Assembly (NCBI GenBank): GCA_964632485.1
Contig: CAZWDO010000012.1
Coordinates: 1-64,000 of the forward strand
Origin: an uncultured bacterium
GTDB lineage: Bacteria > JAGOEH01
Reading direction: 5' to 3'
Length of the DNA stretch: 64,000 nucleotides
In this document: piece by piece, positions 43,143-61,702 of the stretch
Layout: the number at the start of each line of letters is the position of its first letter
Position numbering within the stretch: the first letter of the stretch is position 1
The notes under the pieces: model-generated
What the model saw: the letters and a program-made list of their open reading frames with translations, nothing else
What the model was told of the DNA's origin: nothing
The model's database searches: none
Translations under genes and position numbers: made by a program

Positions 43143-46100
43143 TTATTTTAAATACAGAATTTTATTGAAAAGATGTTGTTGCCCGGCTATCAGAATATAT
43201 ACGCCACTGGGCAGCCAATGCTGCGGTTTCCAATGAATCGTATGAGCGCCAGCGTTAAAATAACCGCTATAAATTTCGCCGATGCGAATCCCGTTGATAG
43301 TGAACAGTTCAAAGCTAACCTGGTTTGCCCTGCTTAATTTTAGTTCAATCGTCAGGTGATCTGTAAAAGGATTGGGAAATGTGGATATTGAACAATCTTG
43401 ATTGGATAAGATAGGAGTTTCGGATTGGGTTTCTTTTTTAAGCTGATATCGACCGTTTCCGCGCAACAGATATTGTTTGAGCCGTTGATGAGTACCCATC
43501 CATGTCGGTTTGATTGGCAGGAGTGTCTCGCTGTCGGGTAGAATTGTATAGGCGTCATCGATGGTTATCAGAAGTTCAGGAATTTCTGACTGTAATCCAT
43601 GGAGTTCAATCCATAGCGGATCTTCCGTCATTTTATCATCATCGGCTAAACCGCAGGGACCTTGCAAATAACAGGGTGTAGCGTTGTTTTCCACTTGTTT
43701 GATAATGCTGTGCGCGAGAAGGGTCCTCGCTGAGTTCTTTTCAGCCATGATAATCAGGGTCTGTTCAAGAGTTCCCTGGTTTCCCACGCGATCAGCGCCT
43801 GTAGCTTTGACTTGAAGAGCTTGCGTTGAGATAGTGTCAAAATTTATGGAGGTGAAATATAGATAATAGTTCGCATCGGTTTGTTGGACATCGACTGGAG
43901 AACCGTTGATTAAAATAGTGGGATTCTGTTTGAGAGATTCTGTGCTTTGTGTAAAAAGCTTGACGTAATGAGGGAAATTAGCGTTTTGCGCTAAATAAAA
44001 ATGAAACGATGGCGCATGGGTGTCGATATAAAAGAAAAAGCTTTGATTGCAGGATCGGGTAAGGCCTTCCTGATCACGCGCGATTACCCGCCAATAATAA
44101 ATGGTATCGGTTATAAAATAGGCGCTGCTGATGGTGATCGTTGTATCGGTTGTCAATGTATCGAAACTTGCGTCAAAATAAGGGGTTAAACTGAATTGAA
44201 GAGTGTAGGAAACAGCATCGCCGGGATCAGGATCGCTGGTTTTTTTCCATCGAAAAGTAACGGATTGCTGTTTTAGTACAGAATCGGTGGCCGGAGCAAC
44301 GAGATCGAAGCCCAGCGGCGATTGATTAACGGCATTGAGATAGAAAAAATTGGGCTGGAGAGCGTAAGCTATAGCATTTTGCTGGTCATGGACTTGTACG
44401 TCCCAGGCGTACAAATGGTTTTCAAGTAACGTGTTTTTGGTAAAGTTATAAAAAGTATCCTGTAATCCGCCTGCCGAATCCAGAATAATGCTATTTGTGG
44501 AATCCTTTAAATACCAGGTGTAAAGAAGTTGATCATCGGGGTCGCTATCGACGGCTTTATCCCAACTAAATGTCGGATGAGCATTTGTAACAGCGCTGTA
44601 AGTAACGGGAGTAAGAAGTTGAAATGTTTGGGGTGAGTTGTTCCCTAAATTTTTATAAAAGTACCAGCCGTTTTGGTTCGCTGTACGTTTTCCGCCGAAA
44701 CTGTCATACGCTTCGACTGTCCAATAGTTTTTTTGATCTTCCTGCAGGTAGGCGAGTGACATAACGCTGAATGTGTCGGTAATCCCTTCCATCCAAGTGG
44801 ACATCAACCCCGAAGAGCGACCCCAGAGAATGCGATATTTGATGGTATCGCCTGGGTCTTCATCTTGGGCGCGTTGCCAGGAGAAAAAGACCTCACCTTC
44901 CCTGTAAGACGTAGCCGAATCAGGACTCAGCAGATTGAATTCCCGGGGGGAGAGATTGAACTGGTCAAGGAAGAAATAGAGCGGATCGGGTGTTGCATCT
45001 GTATAAAGCCCATAACGATCATAGGCTGTAACCGTCAGATAGTAAGTTTGATTGTCCCCAAGTGTCAAGATCGCCTGAGTGTCAGCGGTGATAATACTAT
45101 CAACCTCTGTAAAAGGCCACGTCATATCCCAGCGGATACAATATCGAACCGTATCCAGAATATCTACATCAGTGGCATGATGATAGCGAATTGGGATTGA
45201 AGTCTGGTTAAAAAACTGGCCATCAGTGGGCGTAAGGATAGTAAATGAGGAGGGAGCCTGGTGATGATAATTTAGATAAAAACTATCGATATTGCTGCTG
45301 CTTTGCTGTAAGCTGCGATCAATTGCGCTTATTCGCCAATAGTAGGCTTTATCATCAGCTAACAAGGTGGTTATTTGGAAAAATGTATCCGAGGTGAGTT
45401 GATATTGATACCCCCCCTCCAAACTAATGGCATCGGAAATTGTCAATTGATAGATGATAGAATCCAATGGATCCGGGTCCCATGACCGATGCCAGCTAAA
45501 GGTGGGAAAACTATCTTCCACTAATGCTGCATAGCGCGGGGCAATGCTGGTGGGCGTGGTTGGCGCTGAGGCAATCTGGTCCAGATAAAAACTGCGCCAT
45601 TGATCACAAAGCCGTGTCATCCCTTCTGGATCCTGCGCGGTTATCCGCCAAAAAAAAAGCTGATTTTCGTAAGCTGGCGGTGTATAACTGTAATACAGGA
45701 GATTGGTCGTATCTTTTTTCAGTAGATTGGTAAAGAACGAATCAATAGCGACTTCAAAAATGTATTGGATCAATTGGCCGTCGGGGTCCATTGAAGCTGA
45801 CCAACTAAATAACTGTCCAGCGCTGCCCAGGGGTAACGTGATCCGATATCGATCGGTGGGGCTGTTGAGCTGAAATGCCGTAGGTTGATTGTCCATGCCG
45901 AAAGCGCGGACGCTTTGAGTGTTCCCGGATTCCGCCCAATTATGATATGCCTTTACCTGGTATTCGTACCACAGTGTGTCATTATAATGACTGACTTGTA
46001 CACTATCAGTAATTGTTGTTGTTGTCGCCGAGACCTGTTTGATCAGATTAAATGCATCTGCTCCGGGGCTTTTGCGGTAGATGCGATAACCCTGAATAAA

Positions 46101-46706
46101 ACCTGAGGGATTATTGCCATGCTGCCATTGCAAGCGCACGATACCGCCATTGTCGCGAGGAGCATCAAGTACAGTCAACTGGCTGGGCCCGGTTGGAGCA
46201 ATTGGATAAATAAAGGGGGCTGAGGTTTCAAAATAATAGGTATGGCCGTTCCTTAAAGAATAGGAGGAAATGCGGGGGACTACTTCCCCGAATGATACTG
46301 TGTCCCGAGGGGTTGTCTTACCGGTTATCCGTATCTGTATCAAACAGAGTGTATCGGAACGGGGAGTTGTTGCGCTTAATGAACCTTCAGCATAGGCCAG
46401 CATACCCTCTTCCAGAATTTGATTACTCAAAATGACGCCATTGTTAAAGTAGTTCCATGGCAAAAAAGGCTGAATACCTGTTTCCGGGTATTGATCGATA
46501 ATTTCTACTAATTGAGAATTGTACTCAAAGTAGCATCCAATCCCGTTTAGATTGCTACTATCCATATCGACTACAATCGCCAATGTGTAGAGCGAATCCT
46601 CATGAGCAGCCCAATTCTCCATGGGTGGCTGAATACTGATTTCGTTCGCCTGAAAACGGCTGAGCAGGAAGAGGATGAAGATAATCCATAGTCTTATATA
46701 TCGCAT
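43143..46706 (-). CDS. 1187-aa T9SS-type secreted protein: cohesin-like domain, FN3, six Ig/FN3-like repeats, sorting domain
   Basis: Signal peptide; NGIGCYFEYNSQLVEIID..GIQPF; repeats P..F.L..P...F.W....D.D..D...Y; FPNPF...NKILYLK. Confidence 0.82.
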   Translation of the reverse strand: MRYIRLWIIFILFLLSRFQANEISIQPPMENWAAHEDSLYTLAIVVDMDSSNLNGIGCYFEYNSQLVEIIDQYPETGIQPFLPWNYFNNGVILSNQILEEGMLAYAEGSLSATTPRSDTLCLIQIRITGKTTPRDTVSFGEVVPRISSYSLRNGHTYYFETSAPFIYPIAPTGPSQLTVLDAPRDNGGIVRLQWQHGNNPSGFIQGYRIYRKSPGADAFNLIKQVSATTTTITDSVQVSHYNDTLWYEYQVKAYHNWAESGNTQSVRAFGMDNQPTAFQLNSPTDRYRITLPLGSAGQLFSWSASMDPDGQLIQYIFEVAIDSFFTNLLKKDTTNLLYYSYTPPAYENQLFFWRITAQDPEGMTRLCDQWRSFYLDQIASAPTTPTSIAPRYAALVEDSFPTFSWHRSWDPDPLDSIIYQLTISDAISLEGGYQYQLTSDTFFQITTLLADDKAYYWRISAIDRSLQQSSSNIDSFYLNYHHQAPSSFTILTPTDGQFFNQTSIPIRYHHATDVDILDTVRYCIRWDMTWPFTEVDSIITADTQAILTLGDNQTYYLTVTAYDRYGLYTDATPDPLYFFLDQFNLSPREFNLLSPDSATSYREGEVFFSWQRAQDEDPGDTIKYRILWGRSSGLMSTWMEGITDTFSVMSLAYLQEDQKNYWTVEAYDSFGGKRTANQNGWYFYKNLGNNSPQTFQLLTPVTYSAVTNAHPTFSWDKAVDSDPDDQLLYTWYLKDSTNSIILDSAGGLQDTFYNFTKNTLLENHLYAWDVQVHDQQNAIAYALQPNFFYLNAVNQSPLGFDLVAPATDSVLKQQSVTFRWKKTSDPDPGDAVSYTLQFSLTPYFDASFDTLTTDTTITISSAYFITDTIYYWRVIARDQEGLTRSCNQSFFFYIDTHAPSFHFYLAQNANFPHYVKLFTQSTESLKQNPTILINGSPVDVQQTDANYYLYFTSINFDTISTQALQVKATGADRVGNQGTLEQTLIIMAEKNSARTLLAHSIIKQVENNATPCYLQGPCGLADDDKMTEDPLWIELHGLQSEIPELLITIDDAYTILPDSETLLPIKPTWMGTHQRLKQYLLRGNGRYQLKKETQSETPILSNQDCSISTFPNPFTDHLTIELKLSRANQVSFELFTINGIRIGEIYSGYFNAGAHTIHWKPQHWLPSGVYILIAGQQHLFNKILYLK

Positions 46707-46715
46707 GGGAACTCC

Positions 46716-49715
46716 TTATTTCATCAACATCATTTTACCCTTGAGCCGGGTCTTTCCCTGGCGGGCATCATAAAAATATATCCCGGTGGGATGGGAATCC
46801 CCCGTTGTCGGAGGCCAGGTAATCTGTATCTTGCCGGAGGGAAGTTCGGGCCATGAGTATTGCTGGACCACTTCGCCTGTCAGGTTGTAAATTGTCAGTT
46901 CCACCTTTTCCCTGTTCAATGCGTTGAGTTGTATCTGGCACTGGGAATTAAATGGATTGGGAAAGAGGGCCAGTGTTAGATCGCGAGTGTCCGTTGTTTC
47001 GCTTTCTTCGCTGTTCACCGCCCTTAAGGGGAGAGAGCAGAGCTGATATGCAGAATCCAAAATTTCAATGGATTGCAAATATTGGCTTTCTTCATTTGGT
47101 AAAGTGAGTAACCAATTTATTGTGTCCTGGCCAGCAGGATCAAGCCGGGCATATACGAACGATTTGTCGGAAGGGGTGATTTTTTCAAAATTGAGAGTCG
47201 AATTCTCGGGGAAGGGTGTTTGTAAAGCGGCTCCGGACCCCGGATAATCCGGGCTGAACCGATATTGGATAGCTTTAACCGACATTGCCTGAATTAACCA
47301 ATACTGATAGTTTCCCTGTATCTGGGTTATCATTAATTGAGGATTTCCTGAAAGAGAAGTTTTAGCTACAGAAGTTTCACCCGTCAAACTGCCATGTTCG
47401 CCGAAGTTGGAAACCAAAATGGAAAAATCGGCAAGATTAATAGCGCCATCATTGTTGAAATCCACACTCCAGCGGGAGCCGCTGGTAATCTCTGATATCG
47501 GGACATTGGAGTTGAAATAATAACAGAGCGTCCCGAAATCAACCAGATTGACAATATTATCATTATTGGCATCCCCACCGCGTAATTCATAGAAAATACT
47601 ACTTTCAATCAGCGTCGTTTTAACAATTCCCTGGGCAATCTTGGAGCCATCTATTGTCAGGGAGGTTTCTCCGGTCAGGAAGCGCGGCTCTTTCACTAAG
47701 ATTATATAGGAACCGATAGGCAGGTGCGGAATTTTGATATAGCCTGGGGCATCGACAGAGCGTGATAAGGGTAAATGCAGGGGAGAATAGGTATTGGCAA
47801 GTGGAAGGCGTGTTGCCGCCGTTAACGCTCGAATGGTATAAACGCCGGCGAAGTTATGGCGTCCCTGAAGTGGGGAATGGACCATCGCCAGATAATTTTT
47901 AACACGCATGTAAAAGGGGATGCCCTGTGAGGGTGTTTCCCGTCGGCTTTGGTCAAGCGCTAAGCTAATACGCGCTTGGCGCTGATCCTGGTCAACTGTA
48001 AAGATCGTGTTGCCGGTCGTGTTTTTACGAGCGACTAAATAGAAAGTGGCAATCCAGCCCGAGCTGTCATTCACTTCGGGCAATTCCTCTAACGATTGCA
48101 ACTTCGTCGTGTCGATGGCTTCACTGTAATCAAGTTGATATCCCTTGATATTATTTTTTTCGGAAATCGCGCCAGTGGTAGCATTGACATTATCGCCATG
48201 CAGATCGTTCTCCAGCACAATTCCCTGGGGAAAGAAATCAGCGGACACAAAAGGTTGCACTCCAGCCTGGTAAGGATCCATATCCAGGGGATAGAAAAAC
48301 GTATCATTAATTGTCGTGTAAAATGAGGCGCCAGTAATGACGGCTGTTTCGCCGACCGGAGGTTTAAGCCAGACCTGTATAGCTAAGGTATCGAATACAG
48401 AAATCAGGCTGTCCGATGGAATCATGACGTAATGAGGAAGAACAAGGCTGTCTCGCGCCATAGCGGCTACCAGGTTGGAACTTAAACTGGTATCGCTGGT
48501 AAAATCGATTGATTTAATAGCGAAATAGTAAGTTGTATGAGGAGTCAATCCAGTAACGCTCCGGGTTTCGATTTCTCCTGCTTGGAGAGGTGTCCAGTTT
48601 TGAGCGTAGGTTAAGGCATTATCGAATTCATCGCCCGTGTAGAATGGATAAGTTTGATATTTTACACAATACTGCTTGACCGAATAGCGATAGGGGTTGT
48701 CTTCCGGCGCCGTCCAGGTTAATTGGACAGAGCCATGCAGCGTTCCAGGGCGGGCTTGCAAATCTGTTATGGCGTCCGGAGCAATATTATCCTCCAACAT
48801 ACGCATATAAACTGTATCCACATTCGAGATTTCACTGGAGTTGTTCGCTTCATCGAGTGTTTTGATAGCCAGGTAATAGACACGGCCACCTAGTAGTGAA
48901 TCCACCAGATAAATAGTATCGGTTTCACCGGGATAACGTGGTAGAGAAGTATAGGGATAAGTAGCGGCCTGATTGAAATTAGCGTTGGTGATAGTGACGG
49001 TTGAGTATTTGATCCGGTATTGATAAGCTCTTCCGTTGGAATAGTCATCTCCTGGAACTGTAAACGTCATGATTGCGCGGTTGCGGCGCGGAATACCAGT
49101 AATGGGATTGATGGAACTATCTTGGCTAACCACCAGATCAGTAATCGCGTTAGGAGAAATGCCGTCTTTTTTAGGTTTGGTGCCTGCTGCAGCGCTGACC
49201 AGTGTCGATGTATCCCGCATACAAACGATTGAGGTGTCGTATTGTGTTCCGGTCGAATTCATTTCGCGCATCCATGCCCAAACTACGGTACGCATCCCGA
49301 AAAAAAAAGTCGTGGCTGAATCAAATGTAATTGGTTGTGTGGTGGGTACGATCAATGTTTGGGTAGTGTCCAGCCCTGCCGGCGTCAGGTTTTGGCTGAT
49401 GGGGGTCGAGGACGACCAGTTAGCGGTAGTAATGGCTTGTGTATAATAACGAATCAAGTAAAATGTTTGCACGCTATCATATTGGGTGGTATCATCCCAT
49501 AGTTTCCCGCCCTTCCAACTTAAACGTATCTGTCCCTGGTAAAGGGGAGTTCCGGCAATATCCAGTGTGTCGGCGGTAAAACTACTTACGGGTGTGATGT
49601 ATGTCAAGGCGCTCAAAATCGGATCATAGGGTGAATTTTTATATTCAAGGCAGTATCCTGAAGAAAATCCACTCATTATGAATAAAACTAAGATGATCCA
49701 CAATCTTTTTGGCAT
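46716..49715 (-). CDS. 999-aa T9SS-type secreted protein: three FN3-like domains, cohesin-like domain, dockerin, sorting domain
   Basis: D..P.AITDL..W/FT.P.D FN3 repeats; GDANNDNIVNLVDF...VDFNNDGAINLADF duplicated Ca-binding loops; FPNPFN...GKMMLMK. Confidence 0.85.
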   Translation of the reverse strand: MPKRLWIILVLFIMSGFSSGYCLEYKNSPYDPILSALTYITPVSSFTADTLDIAGTPLYQGQIRLSWKGGKLWDDTTQYDSVQTFYLIRYYTQAITTANWSSSTPISQNLTPAGLDTTQTLIVPTTQPITFDSATTFFFGMRTVVWAWMREMNSTGTQYDTSIVCMRDTSTLVSAAAGTKPKKDGISPNAITDLVVSQDSSINPITGIPRRNRAIMTFTVPGDDYSNGRAYQYRIKYSTVTITNANFNQAATYPYTSLPRYPGETDTIYLVDSLLGGRVYYLAIKTLDEANNSSEISNVDTVYMRMLEDNIAPDAITDLQARPGTLHGSVQLTWTAPEDNPYRYSVKQYCVKYQTYPFYTGDEFDNALTYAQNWTPLQAGEIETRSVTGLTPHTTYYFAIKSIDFTSDTSLSSNLVAAMARDSLVLPHYVMIPSDSLISVFDTLAIQVWLKPPVGETAVITGASFYTTINDTFFYPLDMDPYQAGVQPFVSADFFPQGIVLENDLHGDNVNATTGAISEKNNIKGYQLDYSEAIDTTKLQSLEELPEVNDSSGWIATFYLVARKNTTGNTIFTVDQDQRQARISLALDQSRRETPSQGIPFYMRVKNYLAMVHSPLQGRHNFAGVYTIRALTAATRLPLANTYSPLHLPLSRSVDAPGYIKIPHLPIGSYIILVKEPRFLTGETSLTIDGSKIAQGIVKTTLIESSIFYELRGGDANNDNIVNLVDFGTLCYYFNSNVPISEITSGSRWSVDFNNDGAINLADFSILVSNFGEHGSLTGETSVAKTSLSGNPQLMITQIQGNYQYWLIQAMSVKAIQYRFSPDYPGSGAALQTPFPENSTLNFEKITPSDKSFVYARLDPAGQDTINWLLTLPNEESQYLQSIEILDSAYQLCSLPLRAVNSEESETTDTRDLTLALFPNPFNSQCQIQLNALNREKVELTIYNLTGEVVQQYSWPELPSGKIQITWPPTTGDSHPTGIYFYDARQGKTRLKGKMMLMK

Positions 49716-49770
49716 GAACCCTTCCTTTGTGTCTTCGGTAATTATAGCAGTTTCAGTGCCACTATTATAT

Positions 49771-49798
49771 TAATCGGAAAAAAAACCGAGGTTCTTTA
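49771..49798 (-). promoter_or_regulatory. Putative sigma-28 (FliA/SigD)-type promoter
   Basis: Minus strand TAAA, 16 nt, TCCGATTA, about 55 nt upstream of the ATG at 49715. Confidence 0.45.
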
Positions 49799-50026
49799 AT
49801 GGTTTTTAAAGAAATTTCAGGTAAGCAGGTCTAATCAACTGAAAATGGGGGGTATCGAAACGGCAAGTATATTATGTTTAGGCATTGCGTCTTTCTGTAT
49901 GGAACACACGCGGCGCACCTGCTTTATTTCCAATTGAATTTTGGAGCATATCCGGATTGAAAAACGTAATGAATTTCTTCATATTTATTCTGAAGCAAGA
50001 AGGTTGATGTGGAACAGAGAAAATAA

Positions 50027-51079
50027 TCAGGGAGTAATATAGATGTTGTTAGTGAACAGCCAACCATGGGAATGGCGGTAAGCTTCCAGGCGATAATTGC
50101 CCGCTCGGGTGATGGGGATGGTAAAATTTTCCCCATTTTTGACCAGGATCGGTACGCCATTCAGGATTAATTTAATTTGGGCATCCCGGGGGAGCATTAC
50201 TTTCAAGATGATTGATGAGTTATAAGGAATCGATTCTCCTGGAATGACAGTTTCACCCTGGGGATTTTCTGCCCAAAAAGGAAGTTGTTCGATTTTGCCC
50301 CATCGTTGGTTGTAAATATAGGTATGGCCTTCACGAATTGCGTTCAGGATTTGCCGGTTGACGTCTGAAAGTTCCTGACCTAAAGGTTCTCGTAGGATTA
50401 CATTGGTGCGGATGCTTTGGAACTGTATCGCGTAAGGGAAGAACGTAAGGGTTAATGGTCCGATTTTATAAGGTGTGGCGTGTACATCGATTCCGCCGAT
50501 GGCCGGTACTTTGCGTTGGCAATTCAATAAATCCCATTTTGCCAGCGTACGCTCACTTGGAGCGTAAATCCCTTTACGGGGCGAGATCACCATCCATAAT
50601 TTATTGAGAGGTTTGAGGCGCTCAATCCATTCAGACATCTGGTTCCAGATTTCAATCCCATCGAAATCCTGGATTTGCCATTCCAGCCAGGGGTTAGCGG
50701 GAAAATCGCGCATGGCTTCGCCTCGGATTTCATCGGGATGAGCAATAAAACCAAATCCGCCCTGGTTTTTTACTGCTTTGACAAATTCAGCCGGGCCAAG
50801 ACTGGGATCTATCGGAGTTGTAATATTAAATGCTAAGTAATGATTTAAATTTTCATTTACGGGATCATTCAATTCACAGCCAATCAGCGCCCAGGTATGG
50901 CCATATTTTTTTTCTTTACCATTGAGTTTGCTTTCAATGGTTAGATGGTCAGCAATGATGATATAATCCATTTTAAGTCGGCTGGCTATCTCGGCAATGG
51001 TTTCAATCGATGCGGAACCGTCTGAATACGTGGAGTGGATATGGATAGCGCCGGAGTAAATATAAAACGTAGATTTCAT
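50027..51079 (-). CDS. PHP-domain metallohydrolase (CehA/McbA-like)
   Basis: IHIHSTYSDG, IADH, GCE, IAHP, GIEIWN, GGIDVH. Confidence 0.85.
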   Translation of the reverse strand: MKSTFYIYSGAIHIHSTYSDGSASIETIAEIASRLKMDYIIIADHLTIESKLNGKEKKYGHTWALIGCELNDPVNENLNHYLAFNITTPIDPSLGPAEFVKAVKNQGGFGFIAHPDEIRGEAMRDFPANPWLEWQIQDFDGIEIWNQMSEWIERLKPLNKLWMVISPRKGIYAPSERTLAKWDLLNCQRKVPAIGGIDVHATPYKIGPLTLTFFPYAIQFQSIRTNVILREPLGQELSDVNRQILNAIREGHTYIYNQRWGKIEQLPFWAENPQGETVIPGESIPYNSSIILKVMLPRDAQIKLILNGVPILVKNGENFTIPITRAGNYRLEAYRHSHGWLFTNNIYITP

Positions 51080-54000
51080 TTTAAATATAGAATTTTTTTA
51101 AATTGTTGCTGTTGATTGGTTTCAAAACAGTAAAAGTAAGTTCCGCTGGCAATCTCCCCTGATGGAATCCAACTCAGAGCGTGTGTTCCTGAAGGGTAGA
51201 GGGTTTGGTTGCAGAGCGTTGCGAGGCATTGCCCGCTAAGGTTGTAAACCCTCAGTGTCACCGTTTGGGGTTGAGGCAGTGTAAATTCAAATGTTTGTTG
51301 GCTATTGAAAGGGTTGGGATAGGGAGTATGCAGACGCGGATGTTTGTGGATAATTGCGCCTTTATGGGAAGCAATCTCAATTGTCTGACGAAATACAGAA
51401 TGACCTTGAAAGTCAAAAATTTCTAAATCAGCCCGGGTTTTTTCAGTTGAATTTAATGCGGCGGGAAGTAGGTCCAGTTCGAGAAGAGTTCCCTCTTCGG
51501 TGATTTCTCCGTGAGATGGGCAAAGACGCGCCATTGCCACTCGGCAGGTCTGACCATTGAAGGCCGGCAGGATTAACGGGTCCGAATTATATGCGGTCAA
51601 TAGGTTGCCGGCTTTTTGCGCGATAAGATTTTCTTCCCCTCCGAGGATTGTCAACTCGAGTTCACCCATCATAAATGGCGCCGAACCATCTCCCTTAACG
51701 GCCAGTCGATAAATCGATTGAGCGCTGTCATATACCAGATCAATATAAAAATTGCTGTCGGGGCTCATGCCATTTTTATGGAATGTCGTTTTGGATTCAA
51801 TTCGATTTAAAGAGGGATAAAAATTGGCGGCATACCAACTGTACATCAGACTGAAGGCAATGATGTCGCTGGCATTATGGTTGCCGTCCGGTTTTGAATA
51901 GATATAGGGAGCGGTGCTGCCTTGATAATAGACAACAGGGGCGATATCAGCGATTGGGTCCTGAATTCCGCCGCTTCCATTCCATCCACGGGTGAAAAGC
52001 AGGACATCCCGGCCATTAAGCCGGCCGTCAGGATAGACTTTCAGGTGGGGAGCTGAGCCATGGTTATAGGCGCTATCGGTAGCGATATCGCCCACCATCG
52101 TACCGAGTATCCCCAGATGTACGAAACTTAAATCATCAATAGGCGATTGCTCTGTTTTTTGGTTGTTTGCAGTACTGAGTAAGGTATCAATCAGCATTCC
52201 GGTGATGAAAAACCGTTGATCATTTGAATTGGCATAATAATCAATTTGGTTGCTGTCTATGGCAATATTCATAGTCGCGATTACACCGCCACGGGGAATA
52301 CCGGTTACAGAGTTAAGCAAGGCAAGGCTGATTTCAAACGTTCCGGTTTGGTTGATAGTGGCCAATGGTAAATAATTGAAGTAAACCTGTCCGCCATTAT
52401 TAAATCGGTTGAATAGAGGCCCCTCGCTAATTGAGGTAACCCGGTAGCTGGTTATGTCAATAATACCTGTGACCGAGGCGCTCACGATATCATCGGCATA
52501 ATCCAGCCGAATGGCTATTTCACGGTCCTGCGACTGGTTGTTGACGACAAGCCGGGTATCGCCATCCAGCGCATCAACCAGAGAGAATGTCGTATTGTAA
52601 TCATCGGCCAGGTAGAGTTTATGCTGGCTGTATTGATAATTGGTCTGGCCATATTCGTCGGTAATCAGCGCAAAGATATAGCCGTTGGCAGGATAAGTTC
52701 CCAGATTGGCATTCATAGTCCAATCGTACCAGGATCGACTTTCGCTATAGGAAACAGAGGAGGCGATCAGAGTTTCATTGCCGGAAAGCAAGCCGTTGAC
52801 ATTGCTGTTATCGGGATCGAAGTAGAATGTTAATTTGCAGCGAGTCGGATTGTCATCCGTAATCGAGTAAAAAATCCGGAAAGTGGCATGGGGCGCTAAA
52901 TACACATCGCTTGTATCCACTGGGGGCGCCGGGGATAAATAATTAATCAGTGGTATTTCATTGAGCACTCCCTGGAACTTGTGGATGCGGGAACCCATGA
53001 GGGAGGTATCGCTAACCCAGACATCAACTTTATCGGAACCGAATTCGCCCTGCAGTACTGTAACAGTGCGTGGGCGATAGAGGCACCCCAAGGCAATGGA
53101 GTCGGCTGTTCCTTGAGTACCAATAGTTTTAACCAGTTTCGGGGGATCGGTTATCAGAGGATTGAGAGCCGCTTCATCGCTATAGACCTTGATGATGCCA
53201 CTCAAACTGTCGACAATATAGATGTAGACTTCCGAATAATCAGCGGAACTTGTGTTGTATTTTTGGTAGCGGATGACGTCCAAATCCAAAGGCCGGGTAT
53301 CAGTAGCAAAAACAGATTCGTATTGCAGCCGATAGGTTAGCAGGCTTGATCCGGTTAGGTTGAATTTAATCACCCTTGCTGAATCGGCAACATAAATATC
53401 GATTTTTTCGGTAATGGTGTTTCGTCGGGCAGCGACAGCCCGTGGGCGTCTTAATACTGGCATCCCATGCTGGACTGCATACACACTGTCGTATTCCAAC
53501 AGATCGACAGAAACATAGGATTTGATTTCCAGCGCCTGATCCGCATCGGGGATATACCCGTGGATACCATTACCGAATTTGACTTTCGCCTGGAAGCGGT
53601 CGAATACGTAAACTTTTGCCAGTTCGTCGCAACTGTTGATATCGGGAGTCTGAGTCCAAACTTCACCGTTTACTGTCACTTCTACCGAATCTATTTTGGC
53701 ATAGGTTTCATAGGGTGATTCGTTGATATAGAAAATCTGGTTAGAAATATTGGCTGAAAGTGTACCGCTATAGGTTTGTGGGCCGGCGAAACTCAATTCC
53801 CCATATCCGCTGGGCGTTCCTGCCGAGCCATTGAAAACTAATAGGCGATTTTTTCCGGGACCCCGGTCGCAAATGGCGCCGATCACGTTTTGTTCGTTTT
53901 TGCTGCCAATAAGATAGATGTCCTCCACTGTATCGACGTAGCTCATATAGCGGTGGGAAGATATTGCCGGTGTTAATGAAGAAAGTCCAATATCATAATC

Positions 54001-54804
54001 GGCATTCCGCACTTTAATCATATCCGAATATAGGGTAAAGTTGGGTTGCCGGTTGTCGGCAATGTAGATATCGATTGAATCCTGATTCCATGGATCGGGT
54101 CCCGATGGAACAACGGACACGCTTTTTAGGTAGCTGAATGCGCCGTTGATGCTGGTTTTGGTGTTGAGGATACCTGCGCTGCTATCTTCGGGTATCAAAT
54201 AACAACTAATGAGGATATTCATACTATTTAATAATTGCGCGGCCGCTCCGCCACCAAAATAAAAAATGCCGTTATCGCGGTCCAGTACATAATGGTGAGC
54301 ATTTTGCGTTGATGACGTAAAGTTCGATACTTGCTGCCATATACTGTTGTCAACCGACACTATCGCCGAATTTTGCAAAATGTCCCAGTGAGTCAGATTT
54401 TTATCCATGAATACCAGTGAAATGCTGTCTATACCGCTGCTGTTGACCTGAATGTCCAGTGAGTCGGTAAACGTCGTATTCGCGTTATCATGCAAAGAAA
54501 TCCACCCCGTGTAAAATAACGGGGTTTTGAAAATGCGGGTCTTGGCGCTGCCAGCATCATTGCAGACTATGACCGGTAAATCAAACCCCAATGTACCGCT
54601 GGTGGCATGGTCTGTGAATCCGTCCATTCCGGTGATGTTCTTGAACAGTTCAAGCTGGTTGCCAATTGAATAGTACTGGCCGATATAGTAGGTCTCTCCA
54701 TTTAACCAGTAAACAGGCTGATAAGAAACAGCTTGCTTAGCTTGAATGGAAACGATTAACAGGATCGTAAAAAGAAGAACCAGGATTAATTTTTTAGGTT
54801 TCAT
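51076..54804 (-). CDS. 1242-aa T9SS-type secreted protein: NHL-like propeller with two baseplate-like inserts, Ig-like domain, cohesin-like domain, variant dockerin, second cohesin-like domain, sorting domain
   Basis: Signal peptide; IYIAD/IYVAD/VWVSDT blades; V.V...W......YV.DR.....FG.G twice; PDG.N..D...F twice; YPNPFN...KKILYLK. Confidence 0.8.
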   Translation of the reverse strand: MKPKKLILVLLFTILLIVSIQAKQAVSYQPVYWLNGETYYIGQYYSIGNQLELFKNITGMDGFTDHATSGTLGFDLPVIVCNDAGSAKTRIFKTPLFYTGWISLHDNANTTFTDSLDIQVNSSGIDSISLVFMDKNLTHWDILQNSAIVSVDNSIWQQVSNFTSSTQNAHHYVLDRDNGIFYFGGGAAAQLLNSMNILISCYLIPEDSSAGILNTKTSINGAFSYLKSVSVVPSGPDPWNQDSIDIYIADNRQPNFTLYSDMIKVRNADYDIGLSSLTPAISSHRYMSYVDTVEDIYLIGSKNEQNVIGAICDRGPGKNRLLVFNGSAGTPSGYGELSFAGPQTYSGTLSANISNQIFYINESPYETYAKIDSVEVTVNGEVWTQTPDINSCDELAKVYVFDRFQAKVKFGNGIHGYIPDADQALEIKSYVSVDLLEYDSVYAVQHGMPVLRRPRAVAARRNTITEKIDIYVADSARVIKFNLTGSSLLTYRLQYESVFATDTRPLDLDVIRYQKYNTSSADYSEVYIYIVDSLSGIIKVYSDEAALNPLITDPPKLVKTIGTQGTADSIALGCLYRPRTVTVLQGEFGSDKVDVWVSDTSLMGSRIHKFQGVLNEIPLINYLSPAPPVDTSDVYLAPHATFRIFYSITDDNPTRCKLTFYFDPDNSNVNGLLSGNETLIASSVSYSESRSWYDWTMNANLGTYPANGYIFALITDEYGQTNYQYSQHKLYLADDYNTTFSLVDALDGDTRLVVNNQSQDREIAIRLDYADDIVSASVTGIIDITSYRVTSISEGPLFNRFNNGGQVYFNYLPLATINQTGTFEISLALLNSVTGIPRGGVIATMNIAIDSNQIDYYANSNDQRFFITGMLIDTLLSTANNQKTEQSPIDDLSFVHLGILGTMVGDIATDSAYNHGSAPHLKVYPDGRLNGRDVLLFTRGWNGSGGIQDPIADIAPVVYYQGSTAPYIYSKPDGNHNASDIIAFSLMYSWYAANFYPSLNRIESKTTFHKNGMSPDSNFYIDLVYDSAQSIYRLAVKGDGSAPFMMGELELTILGGEENLIAQKAGNLLTAYNSDPLILPAFNGQTCRVAMARLCPSHGEITEEGTLLELDLLPAALNSTEKTRADLEIFDFQGHSVFRQTIEIASHKGAIIHKHPRLHTPYPNPFNSQQTFEFTLPQPQTVTLRVYNLSGQCLATLCNQTLYPSGTHALSWIPSGEIASGTYFYCFETNQQQQFKKILYLK

Positions 54805-54813
54805 GCTTCCCTC

Positions 54814-54900
54814 AACTTAGTATTTTTTGGAAAGATTGTCAAGGGATTTTTTATAAATTTGAATATTTTCCTTGACTTTCATCATATTTGATATTAATCT
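54814..54900. promoter_or_regulatory. Divergent sigma-70-like promoter pair
   Basis: Minus: TTGACA (54842-54837), 17 nt, TAAGTT. Plus: TTGACT (54872-54877), 17 nt, TAATCT. Confidence 0.55.
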
Positions 54901-54906
54901 TAGGCT

Positions 54907-56214
54907 ATGAAAATTTTGTATCGATATATTTTTCGCCAAATGCTGGCTCCTTATTTTTTTGCGGTTTTTGTGATTACCGGGATAATGTTGGCCAATGAAG
55001 TCATCGTATTGACCGATCTGATACTCAAGCGCGGTGTTCCTTCCGCGATGATTCTGCAACTGGCCATTCTCAGTTTATCCCATATTATTGCACTTTCCGT
55101 GCCAATGGCAGTACTATTATCCACAATTATGACGTATGGACGTCTAACCGATGATAATGAACTCATGGCCATGAAAGCCGGTGGAATCAGTCTTTATGTC
55201 CTGCTTATCCCCGCGCTGGTCTTTGGATTATTCAATGTTGCGTTGATGTTCTGGTTCCACAATTCCGTCCTTCCCAATTCAAATTATAAATTGAAGAATA
55301 TGATGTATTCAGTCCGTAATACCCGACCTACTCTGGTTTTAGAAGACGGAATGTTTAACAAGCTGGGTGATGAACTTTCCATTTATATACGGGAACTGGA
55401 TCATGAAAATAATTTAATGTACGATTTGATGATTTATGATTATCATGGAGTTAAAATTCCAACGTTGATCAAGGCTGAAAAAGGACATCTCCTCTACTTG
55501 AAGCAAACCAACCAGTTGATGATTGAATTAGAAGACGGTGAAATTCATCAGGTCGATGAAAAGAAAAACAATCAATATTCAAAGGTCCAGTTCAAGGAGT
55601 ATACTTATCGGTTGAGCCTGCCCACTAACGATTTGGATTCGATCGATTTAGGAAGGGGGCAGCGGGAAATGAATATCGTTATGATGCAGGACCAGATCAT
55701 CAAACTTGAAGAGCGGCGGGAACAATCACGTCAACGTATACGGGATCAGTTGCTATTGGATTGTCAAAATCTGGTGAACGGTAAAGGAAGTAATCCGCGC
55801 CGTACGTTTCAATACATGAAGAATGAAATCAATGTTATTCAGAGTTTGCTATTGGAAATTCATCAATATGAAGTAGAAGTTCATAAAAAATTGGCGATCC
55901 CCTTTGCCTGTCTGGTATTCATCCTGATTGGCGTTCCTTTAGGTGTGCGGGCAAAGCGGGGTGGAGTTGGACCGGCGATTACTATCAGTGTGATTTTTTT
56001 TATTTTTTATTATGGTTGTTTGATGATTGGCGAGGAGTTGGGGGACAACGGCACAGTCCCTGCCTGGGTGACGATGTGGTTTGCCAATGTGATTATCACT
56101 GTCTATAGTATCTTTTTGTTATATCGGACAGTACAGGAGACAACTTATATTCATTGGGACAAATTTAGATTCTGGCAAAAATGGGCATTTTTTAAACCGA
56201 AACTCAATCAATAA
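54907..56214 (+). CDS. LPS export ABC permease, LptF/LptG family
   Basis: ILYRYIFRQM, PMAVLLSTIMTYGRL..DNELMAMKAGGIS, KKLAIPFACLVF.LIGVPLG. Confidence 0.93.
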   Translation: MKILYRYIFRQMLAPYFFAVFVITGIMLANEVIVLTDLILKRGVPSAMILQLAILSLSHIIALSVPMAVLLSTIMTYGRLTDDNELMAMKAGGISLYVLLIPALVFGLFNVALMFWFHNSVLPNSNYKLKNMMYSVRNTRPTLVLEDGMFNKLGDELSIYIRELDHENNLMYDLMIYDYHGVKIPTLIKAEKGHLLYLKQTNQLMIELEDGEIHQVDEKKNNQYSKVQFKEYTYRLSLPTNDLDSIDLGRGQREMNIVMMQDQIIKLEERREQSRQRIRDQLLLDCQNLVNGKGSNPRRTFQYMKNEINVIQSLLLEIHQYEVEVHKKLAIPFACLVFILIGVPLGVRAKRGGVGPAITISVIFFIFYYGCLMIGEELGDNGTVPAWVTMWFANVIITVYSIFLLYRTVQETTYIHWDKFRFWQKWAFFKPKLNQ

Positions 56215-57991
56215 ACCGGTCAGCATAGTGCCGGACATCATGCCCGGATAAAATATGGAATATGCGAATTTTTTCGATTTTTTGCCTGCTGAACGATTGG
56301 ATGGGAATAAAGATCAAGTGTTTTCCGGCTTGTGAGGCCCAGTGTTTGAGATAGGTCGGCGGACTTTTCCCGGCAATCAGGGCAATATATTTTTGTGTGG
56401 AGTATAGAATGCCCGCTAACACGAGTCGTTCGATAGGATCCGTGTAGGCGTTGAACCATGGGTCCTGCCAAATATCCGGAATGGTACGGGGCGGATAAAT
56501 CATCAACAGGCCTCCATAGTGGCAACGGGAAATACCCGGTCCTACCAGTTCGCTTTCTGGTTGGGTCGAATAAAAACACAAAGTCGATTCATGGGGATGT
56601 TCTGCATACCAGGTTAATCGATGCGGGTAGCGGGATATGTCCGCATCAAAGATGATAATTTTCGCCCCCAGTTTACCATGGCTCATCGGTATTTCCTTCA
56701 CATACAGTTTGCGCTTGTGGTAATCGCGGATTGTTTCCCGAAAAGCCAGGCCGTCCTTGAAGCTGCTGGTGAACTCTTCAATACGTGGTTGCTGTATTTG
56801 GGCGATCTGGAATGCGTTTTGAAATATGTATTGACGAAAATTTTCAATAATAATATCTTCCGGCTGATAAGAAACTTGTTGGTTTCGGTTCCATAACCGC
56901 GACCATTCCTGGCGTTGTTTGCGGGTTGGAGGGAGGCGGAAACGAATCAATCGGGAGAAATGGCGCGGATAGGGCAAGGCATTGACAATGTTATTGTTGA
57001 GAATTGCGTTCCATTGGTCTTCATGATCCGGGTCTTCTTCGGTTTCTTCGGTTTGATTCCAAGGCGAACGGGAACTCCAACGCAAAAAGTGGAACGCTGT
57101 TTCCTCATCAATAATTGCCCGGACGCTTTTTACCAGGGTGAATAAATCGGGTCGGGTCAACATTCTTTGAAATGCCAGACGGTGAGAAAAATCAAGTATC
57201 AATCGGATTTGCTGCGCATTTAATGGATTTAAGCGCAGATAGCGGTTTAGAAAGCGGTTGAATGAAGTAAAAAGTAAAGGATATAATAGATCGTTGCGCC
57301 GCAGTGTCAGTCGATGTTTTTCATAGAGCGCTGCCATCATGGGGAACTCACCACTGCAATAATTATAGATAGACAGGGGAGGAGCCACTGTTTCGATTTG
57401 TGGCGGTTGAGGATGATCCTGCGGTTCCCCGCCAAAAGGCAAAACTTCCAGCAATGGTTTAAAATGCCGGGGTTCAACTAAGGTCAGTATTTTTTGATAG
57501 AATGGTTGGAGGGCATTGAGATGTCCCGCGCTGTACCAGAAATAGAGGTTGTCTTTCAGGTCGGGATGGGTCTTAGGTTGGAATAAATTATAATAGAGCG
57601 CATTGCCAACATGGGACAATAATAGGTCCGGGGTTTGCCCATTCCCCGGGAGTGGAGGGGGATACCCCCAGGGTGAGTAATAAAAAATCGGGATTTTTTG
57701 TATTTTTGCCAGGCGAATTGCTTCGATAACGGCTTCGATCGGTTCAACCAGCAGATATTGGTCATCTTTGAGCAAAAGGCTGGGTTTGGGCAATGCTGAA
57801 ATTGCCGTTTCCAGTGTCTCTTTCCAGAATGAAGGCAAAGGAATCGCCAGCGCGTCGATTTTTTCTTTTAAAATCAGGTCTCTCACGCGCAAAGCAAATT
57901 GATAGTTCCCATGGAGGGGGAGATAAAAAAAAAGATTTTGCCAGGAATAACAATCTGATGCTGTCAGCTCGAGCGAATCATACCAGCTCAT
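56204..57991 (-). CDS. Uncharacterised partner of the MoxR ATPase (DUF5682/TraB-like N-terminus, possible degenerate VWA-like C-terminus)
   Basis: LPLHGNYQFALRVR..I....DALAIPLP; DGLAFRETIR..IIIFD; TWYAEHPHES; start taken at MSWYD, overlapping the ATPase stop. Confidence 0.65.
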   Translation of the reverse strand: MSWYDSLELTASDCYSWQNLFFYLPLHGNYQFALRVRDLILKEKIDALAIPLPSFWKETLETAISALPKPSLLLKDDQYLLVEPIEAVIEAIRLAKIQKIPIFYYSPWGYPPPLPGNGQTPDLLLSHVGNALYYNLFQPKTHPDLKDNLYFWYSAGHLNALQPFYQKILTLVEPRHFKPLLEVLPFGGEPQDHPQPPQIETVAPPLSIYNYCSGEFPMMAALYEKHRLTLRRNDLLYPLLFTSFNRFLNRYLRLNPLNAQQIRLILDFSHRLAFQRMLTRPDLFTLVKSVRAIIDEETAFHFLRWSSRSPWNQTEETEEDPDHEDQWNAILNNNIVNALPYPRHFSRLIRFRLPPTRKQRQEWSRLWNRNQQVSYQPEDIIIENFRQYIFQNAFQIAQIQQPRIEEFTSSFKDGLAFRETIRDYHKRKLYVKEIPMSHGKLGAKIIIFDADISRYPHRLTWYAEHPHESTLCFYSTQPESELVGPGISRCHYGGLLMIYPPRTIPDIWQDPWFNAYTDPIERLVLAGILYSTQKYIALIAGKSPPTYLKHWASQAGKHLIFIPIQSFSRQKIEKIRIFHILSGHDVRHYADRFID

Positions 57992-58958
57992 CGTCCCGAT
58001 CCGGATCGTTGGCAAAGGGGTTATTGTTTAAAAAATCATCAAGGGCTTGAAATCCTTGGGAATAGTTTTTGAAATTATCTTGCCATTGTCCGAAATCAAT
58101 TTTTTCATTGGGCAATTTTAATCGTCTTTTATTGGCGTAATCGTCTGGATTGAGGGCTTCATCTCCCAAAATTTTAGCAATAGCGCGGGTAAAAAGGTCC
58201 AATTCGGAGAGATGAGGACGTTGATTTTTCAAGCGCAAGGTGTAGCGCAGGAGATGGATTCCGTCGCGGGTTGAGAAATCCAGGTCCAGTTCGTGAGCAT
58301 GTTGAAGATATTTAACGACGAGGTCTAATAAGGTTTCCTCGGCGAACTCCACATGGGTCTTGAGTATTTGCCGTTCTTCTTCTTCCGGAGGGAAATCAAT
58401 AAAAATGCGGGGTTGCAGTCGGGATAAAATATATTCGGGAATTTCATAAGTTGATGCATCGTCATTCATTGTCACACAGCATCTGAAATCGGGATGGGCC
58501 TGGATTTTTAACCCGGTAAGCATGCTCTCGATCGAGCGCCGATGGTCCAATAGCGCAGCTAACGAGGCCCAGGCTTTTTCAGACATTCGATTGCCTTCAT
58601 CTAAAATGGCCACACCACCGTTAATCATTGCGGACACGATCGGGCCGGCAAAATAGGATATTTGTTGGTTCTGGTTGATGAACGGCGTGATGAGAAGATC
58701 TTCCGGTCGGGTGTCCATGGTGCATTGATAGACATACGCAGGACGGCCGTATTGTCTCGCCGCCGCGATAGCCAATGTAGTCTTGCCTACTCCCGGTTTT
58801 CCCATGATACGCGGTGTTAATGGCAGGTCTTTTTTATGCAAAAGACTCCAGCATGCCATGATATCCTCTAAATACTCGTTCATGCCGATCCAGGGAGTGT
58901 CGGCATTTTCCGGATAAGCTAACTGTAGCGGGATGGTATCAATGATTATCTGATTCAT
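57978..58958 (-). CDS. MoxR-family AAA+ ATPase
   Basis: Walker A GKPGVGKT, Walker B ILDEGNR, HPDFR..VTMN, SRL. Confidence 0.92.
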   Translation of the reverse strand: MNQIIIDTIPLQLAYPENADTPWIGMNEYLEDIMACWSLLHKKDLPLTPRIMGKPGVGKTTLAIAAARQYGRPAYVYQCTMDTRPEDLLITPFINQNQQISYFAGPIVSAMINGGVAILDEGNRMSEKAWASLAALLDHRRSIESMLTGLKIQAHPDFRCCVTMNDDASTYEIPEYILSRLQPRIFIDFPPEEEERQILKTHVEFAEETLLDLVVKYLQHAHELDLDFSTRDGIHLLRYTLRLKNQRPHLSELDLFTRAIAKILGDEALNPDDYANKRRLKLPNEKIDFGQWQDNFKNYSQGFQALDDFLNNNPFANDPDRDDELV

Positions 58959-58974
58959 GGTTATTGTTTCCTCG

Positions 58975-60222
58975 TCATGGCCGGCCTAATAGACGAAACA
59001 TATTTTTCTTATAGGCTTCAACTCCAGGCTGATCAAATGGATTGATCCCCATAAGATACCCGTTCAACGCCGTTGTTTTTTGGAAAAAGAATACCATTTC
59101 TCCCAGTGTAAATTCATCCAATCGATCCAATTCGAGCCGGATAATAGGTACATCCCCACTTTCGTGGGCTTGGGCGGTTCCCTGATAAGCCAGATAATTG
59201 ATTTGGTTGAGGTCTTTCCCCACCAAGTAATTGAGCTGGTCGAAATCTTGGGGAGAATCCGGTAAAACCAGTGGTTTTTTTTGATGGACGAAAAGGAAGG
59301 TTTCAAAGAGGATGCGCGGTCCCTCCTGTATCCATTGTCCCAGGGAATGCAGATCGGTGGAAAAGATAGTGGCTGCCGGGAAAAGTCCCTGAGCTGATTT
59401 TCCTTCGCTTTCGCCGAAGAGCTGTTTCCACCACTCGTTGAAATAGCGTAACCGGGGTTCAAATGTGGACATAATTTCGATTTCTTTGCCATTTTTATAA
59501 TAGTGGTCACGGGCGCAGACATAGCTGTAGAGAGGATTTTCAGCTTCCTGCGTGGAGTGTTGACATTCCCGGGCGCCTTGTAGGAGAGCATCGATGGAAA
59601 ACCCGGCAACCGCGATCGGAAGCAGGCCAACGGCAGTCAATACGGAAAATCTACCGCCTATATCGTCCGGTACGACTAATGTTCGATAGCCTTGCTGGTC
59701 AGCCAGTCCTTTAAGGATTCCCTTGTGGGCATCAGTCGTGGCAATGATCCGCCGGGCAGTTTCGCTGCGGTTATATTTTCTTTCAAGGAGTTGTTTAAGA
59801 ACGCGAAAGGCAATAGCGGGCTCAATTGTGCCCCCGCTTTTTGAAACGATATTGATATAGAAATCACGGTCTTCCAAAAAGGCGCATAGTTCCTGTAAAT
59901 AATGGCCGTCCAGCGAAAATCCTGCGAAAATGACTTTCGCCGGATCGAAGCTCGGTTGCAGAGCCTCTATAATAGCTTTGGCGCCCAGATAGGAACCCCC
60001 GATACCAATAACGACAAGGTAGGATTGGCGTTGGCGTATCTCTTCGGCAATTAACTGAATTTGACGATACTCCTCAGTTTGCGTATAGGTAAGGGGCCAT
60101 TTATACCAACCGGCCCAACCGCTGCGATTGGTTTTCAGTTCTGTTGTTTCAATTTGAAGTATTCGTTCAATTGTCGGGGTAATGCCCGCATCCGGCAATT
60201 CCGTTTTAATTGAGATAGGCAT
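58975..60222 (-). CDS. pgi: Glucose-6-phosphate isomerase
   Basis: GIGGSYLG, SKSGGTIEP, IGGRFSV, QLFGESEGK, DLHSLGQ, NPFDQPGVEAYK. Confidence 0.97.
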   Translation of the reverse strand: MPISIKTELPDAGITPTIERILQIETTELKTNRSGWAGWYKWPLTYTQTEEYRQIQLIAEEIRQRQSYLVVIGIGGSYLGAKAIIEALQPSFDPAKVIFAGFSLDGHYLQELCAFLEDRDFYINIVSKSGGTIEPAIAFRVLKQLLERKYNRSETARRIIATTDAHKGILKGLADQQGYRTLVVPDDIGGRFSVLTAVGLLPIAVAGFSIDALLQGARECQHSTQEAENPLYSYVCARDHYYKNGKEIEIMSTFEPRLRYFNEWWKQLFGESEGKSAQGLFPAATIFSTDLHSLGQWIQEGPRILFETFLFVHQKKPLVLPDSPQDFDQLNYLVGKDLNQINYLAYQGTAQAHESGDVPIIRLELDRLDEFTLGEMVFFFQKTTALNGYLMGINPFDQPGVEAYKKNMFRLLGRP

Positions 60223-60225
60223 GGT

Positions 60226-61674: not shown

Positions 61675-61702
61675 AATTCCCTGCTTTTTGAAGGTGACCG
61701 GG

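Follow-up and report, generated by a model that had tools for sequence, protein, structure and literature searches.

Within a 64,000-nucleotide stretch of DNA from an uncultured bacterium of the JAGOEH01 lineage (contig CAZWDO010000012.1 of assembly GCA_964632485.1; hereafter the window), the open reading frame (ORF) at 51076..54804 on the minus strand encodes P0001, a secreted surface protein of 1242 residues that is sorted by the type IX secretion system (T9SS), as judged from the ORF list and the translation. Two short modules of P0001 are, by sequence, genuinely homologous to a small domain found in the gp6-like wedge proteins of contractile tails, where it forms the start of the Baseplate_J region. 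We consider it probable that these modules are a wedge domain that was taken out of the tail and reused as a binding or spacer knob, with no connection to an injection system. Module 1 spans residues 128-212 (54169..54423, minus strand) with a core at residues 148-198 (54211-54363), and module 2 spans residues 345-435 (53500..53772, minus strand) with a core at residues 375-426 (53527-53682). Both match TIGR02243 and a module hidden Markov model (HMM), and module 2 in addition has the N-terminal Q-x-F...P strand. The original prediction, made from the DNA letters alone, had described two baseplate-like modules of phage or extracellular contractile injection system type at 53515-54363; this interval corresponds to residues 148-430 of P0001, and both peptides quoted for it are found in the translation.

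Homology of the modules to a baseplate wedge domain

The two modules, of ~55-90 residues each, are related to one another as had been claimed, with 14/42 identities in BLASTP and an expectation value (E) of 1e-6 for the single comparison. The module HMM, built locally and 52 positions long, scores module 1 at 54 bits and module 2 at 64 bits. When each module is run alone against NCBIfam, TIGR02243 is the sole match, at positions 384-428 for module 1 (E 0.045) and positions 377-438 for module 2 (E 0.026); both therefore fall on the same segment of this profile, which has 659 positions and is named 'putative baseplate assembly protein'. Against Pfam, the isolated modules gave unrelated matches only, at E 0.04-0.11 (Profilin, Kelch, DUF5887, aRib and S1), and residues 340-440 returned from the ESM Atlas only scores under 0.8 and no structure.

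A phmmer search with residues 24-640 of P0001 against 1.84 billion cluster representatives yielded 20 proteins at E<=1e-3. Among them are an orthologue (P0002), a paralogue from the same genome (P0003) and seven T9SS relatives with NHL and cohesin parts, together with five proteins that carry the Pfam domain Baseplate_J (PF04865), namely P0004 (E 2.4e-17), P0005 (E 2.7e-10), P0019, P0020 and P0021. P0006 (E 1.1e-9) is a fragment of a Baseplate_J-type protein, P0011 has Tail_P2_I, P0013 and P0018 are arabinofuranosidase-like, and P0016 has no family. One phmmer match, P0010, is a low-complexity repeat artifact that we excluded from all counts. In nearly all matches it is module 2 or module 1 of the query that aligns best, module 2 in most of them.

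We also compared alignments of the modules with one another and with proteins of solved structure. Alignment A2 holds one module per protein (19 rows), A3 is its non-tail subset (11 rows) and A5 contains baseplate proteins only (6 rows). All 11 secreted-protein modules of A3 match TIGR02243, the best at E 1.1e-13. Against PDB sequences, A2 matches Cis11 of S. coelicolor (9gtp_1K, residues 301-396) at E 1.4e-9 and BplA of phage P1 (9ay5_Y/9vzk, residues 171-235) at E 4.5e-6. Only three sequences are matched in all at E<=10, the third by chance, and T4 gp6, Afp11, Pvc11 and Alg11 are not among them. The secreted-only profile A3 recovers BplA (residues 173-231) at E 2.2e-5 and gives Cis11 at E 0.26, and hhalign of A3 against A5 returns a probability of 99.2% (E 2.4e-19) over 74 columns. 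The conserved W, D..Y.LD and FGDG.HG..P positions, as well as the upstream Q-x-F...P strand, are common to the secreted and the baseplate copies. Cis11 (PDB 9GTP, chain 1K) and BplA (9AY5, 9VZK) have in common with P0001 the module and its motifs Q.F...P, V.V.G..W..V and D..Y.LD..G.I.FGDG.HG.P. Both are gp6-type wedge proteins according to the available portions of the two reports (PMC12237407; bioRxiv 10.1101/2025.07.21.665459).

The TIGR02243 matches, the phmmer results, the profile matches to BplA and Cis11 and the hhalign comparison together bear out, in statistical terms, the baseplate homology put forward in the original prediction, and the motif that it gave for the family is visible in genuine TIGR02243/Baseplate_J proteins. 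Its wording 'T4 gp6-like, Afp11-like' was right in kind, but the link that can be detected is to the TIGR02243/Cis11 branch and to BplA of phage P1.

Place of the module in wedge proteins

We ran the module HMM and a local HMM of the C-terminal Baseplate_J region over 117 fetched proteins (118 minus P0010). The C-terminal region is present in 95 of the 117, and as a rule the module ends within ~10 residues of its start; once P0108 is added by Pfam, Baseplate_J-type proteins with the module come to 96/117. In a 466-residue wedge protein of genome G037, the PF04865 alignment begins inside the module, at residue 196 and profile position 47. From the position of the module and this start within it, we identify the module with the N-terminal ~80 positions of Pfam Baseplate_J; on TIGR02243, the module region covers positions ~355-438. 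The available portions of three structural reports give the order of parts in wedge proteins as core bundle, wing, trifurcation unit and dimerization domain (PMC10996793; PMC12810830; PMC11915804), and in the accessible text of the wedge-structure papers we found no description of the module residues as a named domain.

One copy of the module is usual in wedge proteins. P0004, P0005, P0022-P0030 and others have 2-5 head-to-tail copies before the C-terminal Baseplate_J region, and such tandem-copy proteins are both bacterial and archaeal (one source names P0024 Methanosarcina). P0004 has a precomputed Pfam family, PF27067.1, that P0001 does not have and that may or may not name the module. The best single-sequence matches of the P0001 modules are to these tandem-array 'putative baseplate assembly proteins' (e.g. 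P0004, P0022-P0030), in which the copies recur with a period of ~85-95 residues directly before the C-terminal region. In P0001, unlike these arrays, the two copies lie ~225 residues apart with blade-like sequence between them.

The remainder of P0001 also departs from the wedge proteins. In the NCBIfam scan of the full protein, it matches TIGR02243 weakly and in two stretches, at positions 377-438 only and at no other part of the profile, the N-terminal core-bundle region included, and where the wedge proteins have their core helical bundle part, it has a signal peptide followed by blade-like sequence. PF04865 gives no match to P0001 at E<=10, and the local HMM of the C-terminal Baseplate_J region is likewise negative. 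Compared with a wedge protein, P0001 thus lacks both the core-bundle part of the N-terminus and all of the C-terminal Baseplate_J region; it is exported by the T9SS, its two copies are separated among NHL blades, and it has no sheath, tube, spike or gp25 genes as neighbors.

Other carriers and origin of the module

P0001 has orthologues, at 59% and 54% identity, in both of the only two other genomes of its family and order. Identity between orthologues is 40-59% in the modules, similar to the 51-68% of the blades. Both P0001 and its paralogue P0003 (C18:53847-58382, minus strand) are kept in all three genomes of the order. P0003 has about 1500 residues and the same architecture as P0001, and its equivalent of module 2 contains a 17-residue insertion (91.5%, E 8.5e-7). 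Around P0001, one relative has retained part of the synteny, which the other has lost.

Proteins of the NHL/cohesin T9SS type that carry the module number 14, this genome's own paralogue included, and some of them come from beyond the order. P0007-P0009, P0012, P0014, P0015, P0017, P0039, P0041, P0042 and P0044 are collinear with P0001 from module 2 to the sorting domain. They have module 2 before an NHL blade, as in P0001, and most have a partial module 1, but across the N-terminal part that was aligned they are only 18-24% identical to P0001. P0017 appears in one source as a cohesin domain-containing protein of Candidatus Eisenbacteria.

The module also occurs in homologues of the glycoside hydrolase family 51 (GH51) alpha-L-arabinofuranosidases (e.g. 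PDB 2Y2W, 3UG3), whose copy is the closest to module 2 of P0001. These GH51-like carriers are P0013, P0018, P0064 and an ORF of genome G085 (locus L023:664-3081), in each of which a single module follows the catalytic GNE motif. For P0013, the alignment with GH51 arabinofuranosidases of known structure extends to the GNE acid/base motif, is interrupted at the module and picks up again in the C-terminal sandwich. Like P0001, the GH51-like carriers are secreted proteins, with a dockerin, Big domains or, as in the G085 ORF, a T9SS tail; they differ from it in that the host of the module is a (beta/alpha)8 glycosidase homologue rather than a set of propeller-type blades. P0120 is a stand-alone module protein of 116 residues. 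P0016 (879 residues), with two modules, belongs to no Pfam family and is without a relative in the PDB at E<=0.1.

A word-indexed profile search, in which 7,999 candidates were scored from a sample biased by the query, found 107 proteins at E<=1e-3. Most are named by their sources as baseplate assembly or baseplate J/gp47 proteins, and the T9SS proteins and a single GH51-like protein are also among them. Of 401 sampled genomes, 28 have the module, this genome and its two relatives included. The 30 loci classified from this sample comprise 24 with the C-terminal Baseplate_J region, three orthologues of P0001 and three others, which are the GH51-like T9SS protein of G085, a partial match and a 115-residue frame. 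With 24 of 30 loci of the Baseplate_J type, we regard the module as chiefly a wedge domain that has been reused a few times. Non-tail carriers are few in this sample, and the module is hence no generic domain common among secreted proteins. Neither is the module restricted to P0001: GH51-like enzymes and further T9SS proteins also have it, as does a small stand-alone protein, and this recurrence across NHL/cohesin, GH51-like and stand-alone proteins makes it look like a reusable building block derived from tails.

We built an unrooted tree from 50 columns of 86 module cores. In it, the GH51-type copies, rather than those of the NHL/cohesin relatives, are the closest to module 2 of P0001 and P0002, with weak support (0.66), and module 1 lies nearest P0016. 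A single clade of all 18 secreted copies is not rejected by the approximately unbiased (AU) test (p-AU 0.83). One capture from a tail protein, with later shuffling among secreted proteins, would be compatible with these data. A direction from tail to secreted protein is suggested because the module is fixed and near-universal in wedge proteins.

Architecture of the host protein

P0001 begins with a signal peptide at residues 1-22 (MKPKKLILVLLFTILLIVSIQA; 54739..54804, minus strand), judged by eye from its basic start, hydrophobic core and A-x-A-like cleavage end. It closes with a T9SS type A C-terminal sorting domain at residues 1162-1239 (51088..51321, minus strand), recognized by TIGR04183 of NCBIfam (44.8 bits, cut-off 23) and, over residues 1162-1238, by PF18962 (31.4 bits, cut-off 27), which is the sole Pfam domain recognized in the protein. 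The genome encodes the PorU sortase gene (638 bits, cut-off 420), and the same sorting domain is present on >50 further ORFs. P0001 thus combines the three marks of a T9SS cargo, namely a signal peptide (by eye), a C-terminal sorting domain and T9SS machinery in the genome. As a whole, P0001 finds only chance-level matches among PDB sequences (phmmer, E 0.6 or more), and in PHROGs it has a single match, of unknown function, at E 0.064.

The original prediction had placed about six NHL blades around the modules. All six of its motifs are present in the translation (IVCND at residues 79-83, IYIAD at 246-250, AICDR at 310-314, IYVAD at 470-474, IYIVD at 528-532 and VWVSD at 595-599), but with a blade HMM only three of the blades reach significance; another is marginal, and the other two escape detection. 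The three NHL-type blades detected occupy residues 454-615 (52960..53445, minus strand), with matches at residues 454-484 (E 1.5e-12), 513-548 (E 6.6e-9) and 578-615 (E 1e-10). The blade at residues 240-251 is marginal (E 0.67), and the HMM detects nothing at the motifs of blades 1 and 3; blade 1 (residues 77-92, PVIVCNDAGSAKTRIF; 54529..54576, minus strand) is a putative assignment from its motif by eye. The relatives P0008 and P0017 have a significant blade (~residues 67-103, E about 1e-13) ahead of module 1. Pfam NHL does not match P0001, and it matches just after module 2 in 6/8 T9SS relatives.

A profile of the P0001 family (A4, 15 rows) run against PDB sequences matches the NHL propeller of TRIM71 at E 1.2e-13 in the region of residues 454-615, and the PknD-derived Pizza proteins as well. 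The same profile matches the ScaB cohesin 4ums (E 3.5e-4), a FlgD-type immunoglobulin (Ig) domain that corresponds to part of the sorting domain (E 8.7e-5) and BplA (E 0.01). Pfam Cohesin and Dockerin give no direct match within P0001. Cohesin-like module 1 (~residues 740-860; 52225..52587, minus strand) was placed by collinear alignment with P0009, in which Pfam Cohesin covers residues 434-553 (44.9 bits), and cohesin-like module 2 (~residues 1003-1110; 51475..51798, minus strand) by alignment with P0017, in which it covers residues 1127-1230 (51.8 bits); three collinear relatives exceed the Cohesin cut-off. A dockerin-like segment at residues 922-984 (51853..52041, minus strand), with two visible PDG..D..F motifs, matches dockerin_GC of NCBIfam below threshold (E 0.0079; 16.6 bits, under the cut-off of 29). 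Judged by the Pfam and NCBIfam scans and the family profile, the host had been described essentially correctly, as a protein with a signal peptide, NHL-type blades, cohesin- and dockerin-like parts and a T9SS tail. The modules would fold separately, and they may be inserted as loops in a single six-bladed propeller and may be exposed at the surface.

Genomic context

The window is ordinary chromosome, with genes for SecY, RpoA, CheA, YceG, GH3, glycosyltransferases, Wzy, LptF/G, PGI and GlgA. The neighbors of P0001 are housekeeping or surface proteins, with no sheath, tube, spike or gp25 genes, in agreement with the claim that the window holds no other tail genes. At window positions 51076-51079, the stop codon of P0001 and the start codon of a downstream PHP-domain gene (50027-51079) overlap. 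We rejected a conserved operon of these two genes: they lie 3.7 kb apart in genome G001, and the PHP gene is absent from the locus in G002.

The genome as a whole (4.45 Mb, 98% complete) was searched for sheath and contractile injection system (CIS) genes. It contains no PF04865, Phage_sheath_1 or gp19 tube match, and TIGR02243 matches at the two modules only. With the module HMM, P0001 is the sole significant carrier among the 30,926 six-frame ORFs; the paralogue on contig C18 gives a weak summed match (E 3e-4). The sole gp25-like gene belongs to a type VI secretion system (T6SS) on contig C13, and TssF of this T6SS does not match the module (hhalign probability 0.5%). The T6SS itself is a complete canonical cluster (C13 ~44500-62100, locus L010) with TssK, TssL, TssM, TssA, TssB, TssC, Hcp, TssE, TssF, TssG, ClpV and VgrG, found here in a T9SS-rich, barely sampled lineage.

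Next to P0001, two further T9SS giants are encoded in the window on the minus strand. That at 46716-49715 bears a dockerin (Dockerin_1, 25.9 bits, cut-off 22.9) and fn3, and that at 43143-46706 has a Rha78A-like Ig domain. The dockerin of the former could pair with the cohesin-like modules of P0001. Elsewhere in the window, a protein of 1697 residues (23278-28371, minus strand) with BACON_2, HYDIN/VesB-like Ig and fn3 domains adjoins a GH3 gene, and a 603-residue ORF without a Pfam family (56204-58015, minus strand) overlaps the end of the gene for an AAA_5 (MoxR-like) ATPase (57978-58958, minus strand).

Discussion

Reuse of the wedge domain as a knob would begin with its transfer, perhaps a single time, out of tail proteins and into secreted proteins of cells. 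Judging from the context in which they are found, the modules would act as compact, self-folding knobs on carbohydrate-related cell-surface machinery, where each knob would supply a surface that binds a glycan or a partner protein, or that acts as a spacer. P0001 is not a tail remnant: it lacks the other wedge parts, the window is ordinary chromosome, the genome has no Phage_sheath_1 or gp19 tube, and its T6SS TssF does not match the module. Fraser et al. 2006 reportedly described Ig-like domains on phage virions. The sharing of Ig-like domains and carbohydrate-binding modules (CBMs) is the same phenomenon as that seen here, with a small beta domain that secreted carbohydrate-related proteins share with tail or virion proteins, but those domains are accessory decoration of a tail protein, whereas the module is a conserved core part of the wedge family.

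Several observations weigh against reuse as a knob or against the strength of the tail link. The strongest phmmer E values are sums over several module copies in query and target, and carriers with a single copy reach 35-40 bits (E 3e-5 to 7e-4). A tblastn search with module 2 against 50,697 phage records gave no match at E<=1, so that it is through the profile match to BplA of P1 that the module is tied to phages in the strict sense rather than to CIS-type clusters. The module tree is poorly resolved, with 59/83 inner branches open. In the available portion of the BplA report, Arg189 of BplA+, which lies inside the module region 171-235, contacts Gln292 of BplA- (bioRxiv 10.1101/2025.07.21.665459). 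By the order of domains given in the accessible text of the structural reports, the module region is where the three chains of the wedge triplex meet, which would favor a protein-protein or oligomerization role over a glycan-binding one.

This contact and this location are among the points in favor of an oligomerization module, in which wedge-type chain association would drive self-association or the pairing of module 1 with module 2 and so build ordered surface arrays. The module immediately precedes the C-terminal region, at the place where those reports lead one to expect the trifurcation unit, and the NHL/cohesin family has two modules per chain, just as the wedge keeps two gp6-like chains. 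We nevertheless find such a role rather unlikely: only the order of domains assigns the module to the trifurcation unit, the GH51-like carriers and the stand-alone protein have a single copy, and the 2-5 tandem copies of archaeal wedge proteins fit decoration better than a fixed interface. It is quite improbable that the modules keep the wedge interface itself and through it either build wedge-like trimers or rings at the outer membrane or attach to a contractile-tail baseplate; if they did, a tail-assembly interface would have been redeployed to organize or intercept cell-surface machinery. A dock or decoy, in which the displayed wedge-like domains bind parts of foreign phage tails or injection systems to trap or recruit them, has in its favor only the homology itself and the surface location predicted from the sorting domain. 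The genome has no cognate tail of the Baseplate_J type and its T6SS TssF is without the module, the gene lies outside any defense-like or conserved operon context, and a decoy makes little sense inside glycoside hydrolase homologues, all of which leaves this explanation very improbable.

The opposite direction of transfer, from an old domain of cellular secreted proteins into an ancestor of the TIGR02243/P1-type wedge proteins, would fit the unrooted tree and the AU test equally well, and wedge proteins do accept cellular modules, as with the CBMs inserted in the AlgoCIS wedge protein Alg11 according to the available text of PMC8894135. The module is, however, present at a fixed position in nearly all of the Baseplate_J-type proteins retrieved, in bacteria and archaea, and the non-tail carriers are few and patchy (3/30 loci from the 28 matching of 401 genomes); we thus hold this direction to be unlikely. 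Similarity by chance, through convergence on a short beta-hairpin motif (FGDG..G..P), could be argued from the low scores of the direct TIGR02243 matches (12-13 bits) and from a core of ~52 residues. It is scarcely credible in the face of the 74-column hhalign result, the phmmer match to P0004, the recovery of BplA by the secreted-only profile and the sharing of all the W, D..Y.LD and FGDG.HG..P positions along with the Q-x-F...P strand.

The modules of P0001 are, then, a real, though probably ordinary, case of a tail building block reused outside the tail, and the finding does not indicate a new injection or defense system. In the literature within our scope, which left aside subscription journals and supplements, we found no prior description of a baseplate J module together with cohesin, NHL or type IX secretion. 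The comparison defines a small domain that has so far had no separate name, unless PF27067.1 should prove to name it. Annotation pipelines read this domain as a weak 'baseplate assembly protein' and may mistake it for the remnant of a prophage or of an extracellular contractile injection system. Outside the tail, it offers a soluble context in which binding by a wedge subdomain can be studied. For this barely sampled bacterial lineage, the modules mark a conserved pair of large surface proteins. More generally, what cellular secreted proteins have taken up here goes beyond decorative Ig-like additions: it is a conserved core piece of the contractile-tail wedge, which has entered both T9SS scaffolds of the NHL/cohesin type and GH51-like enzymes.

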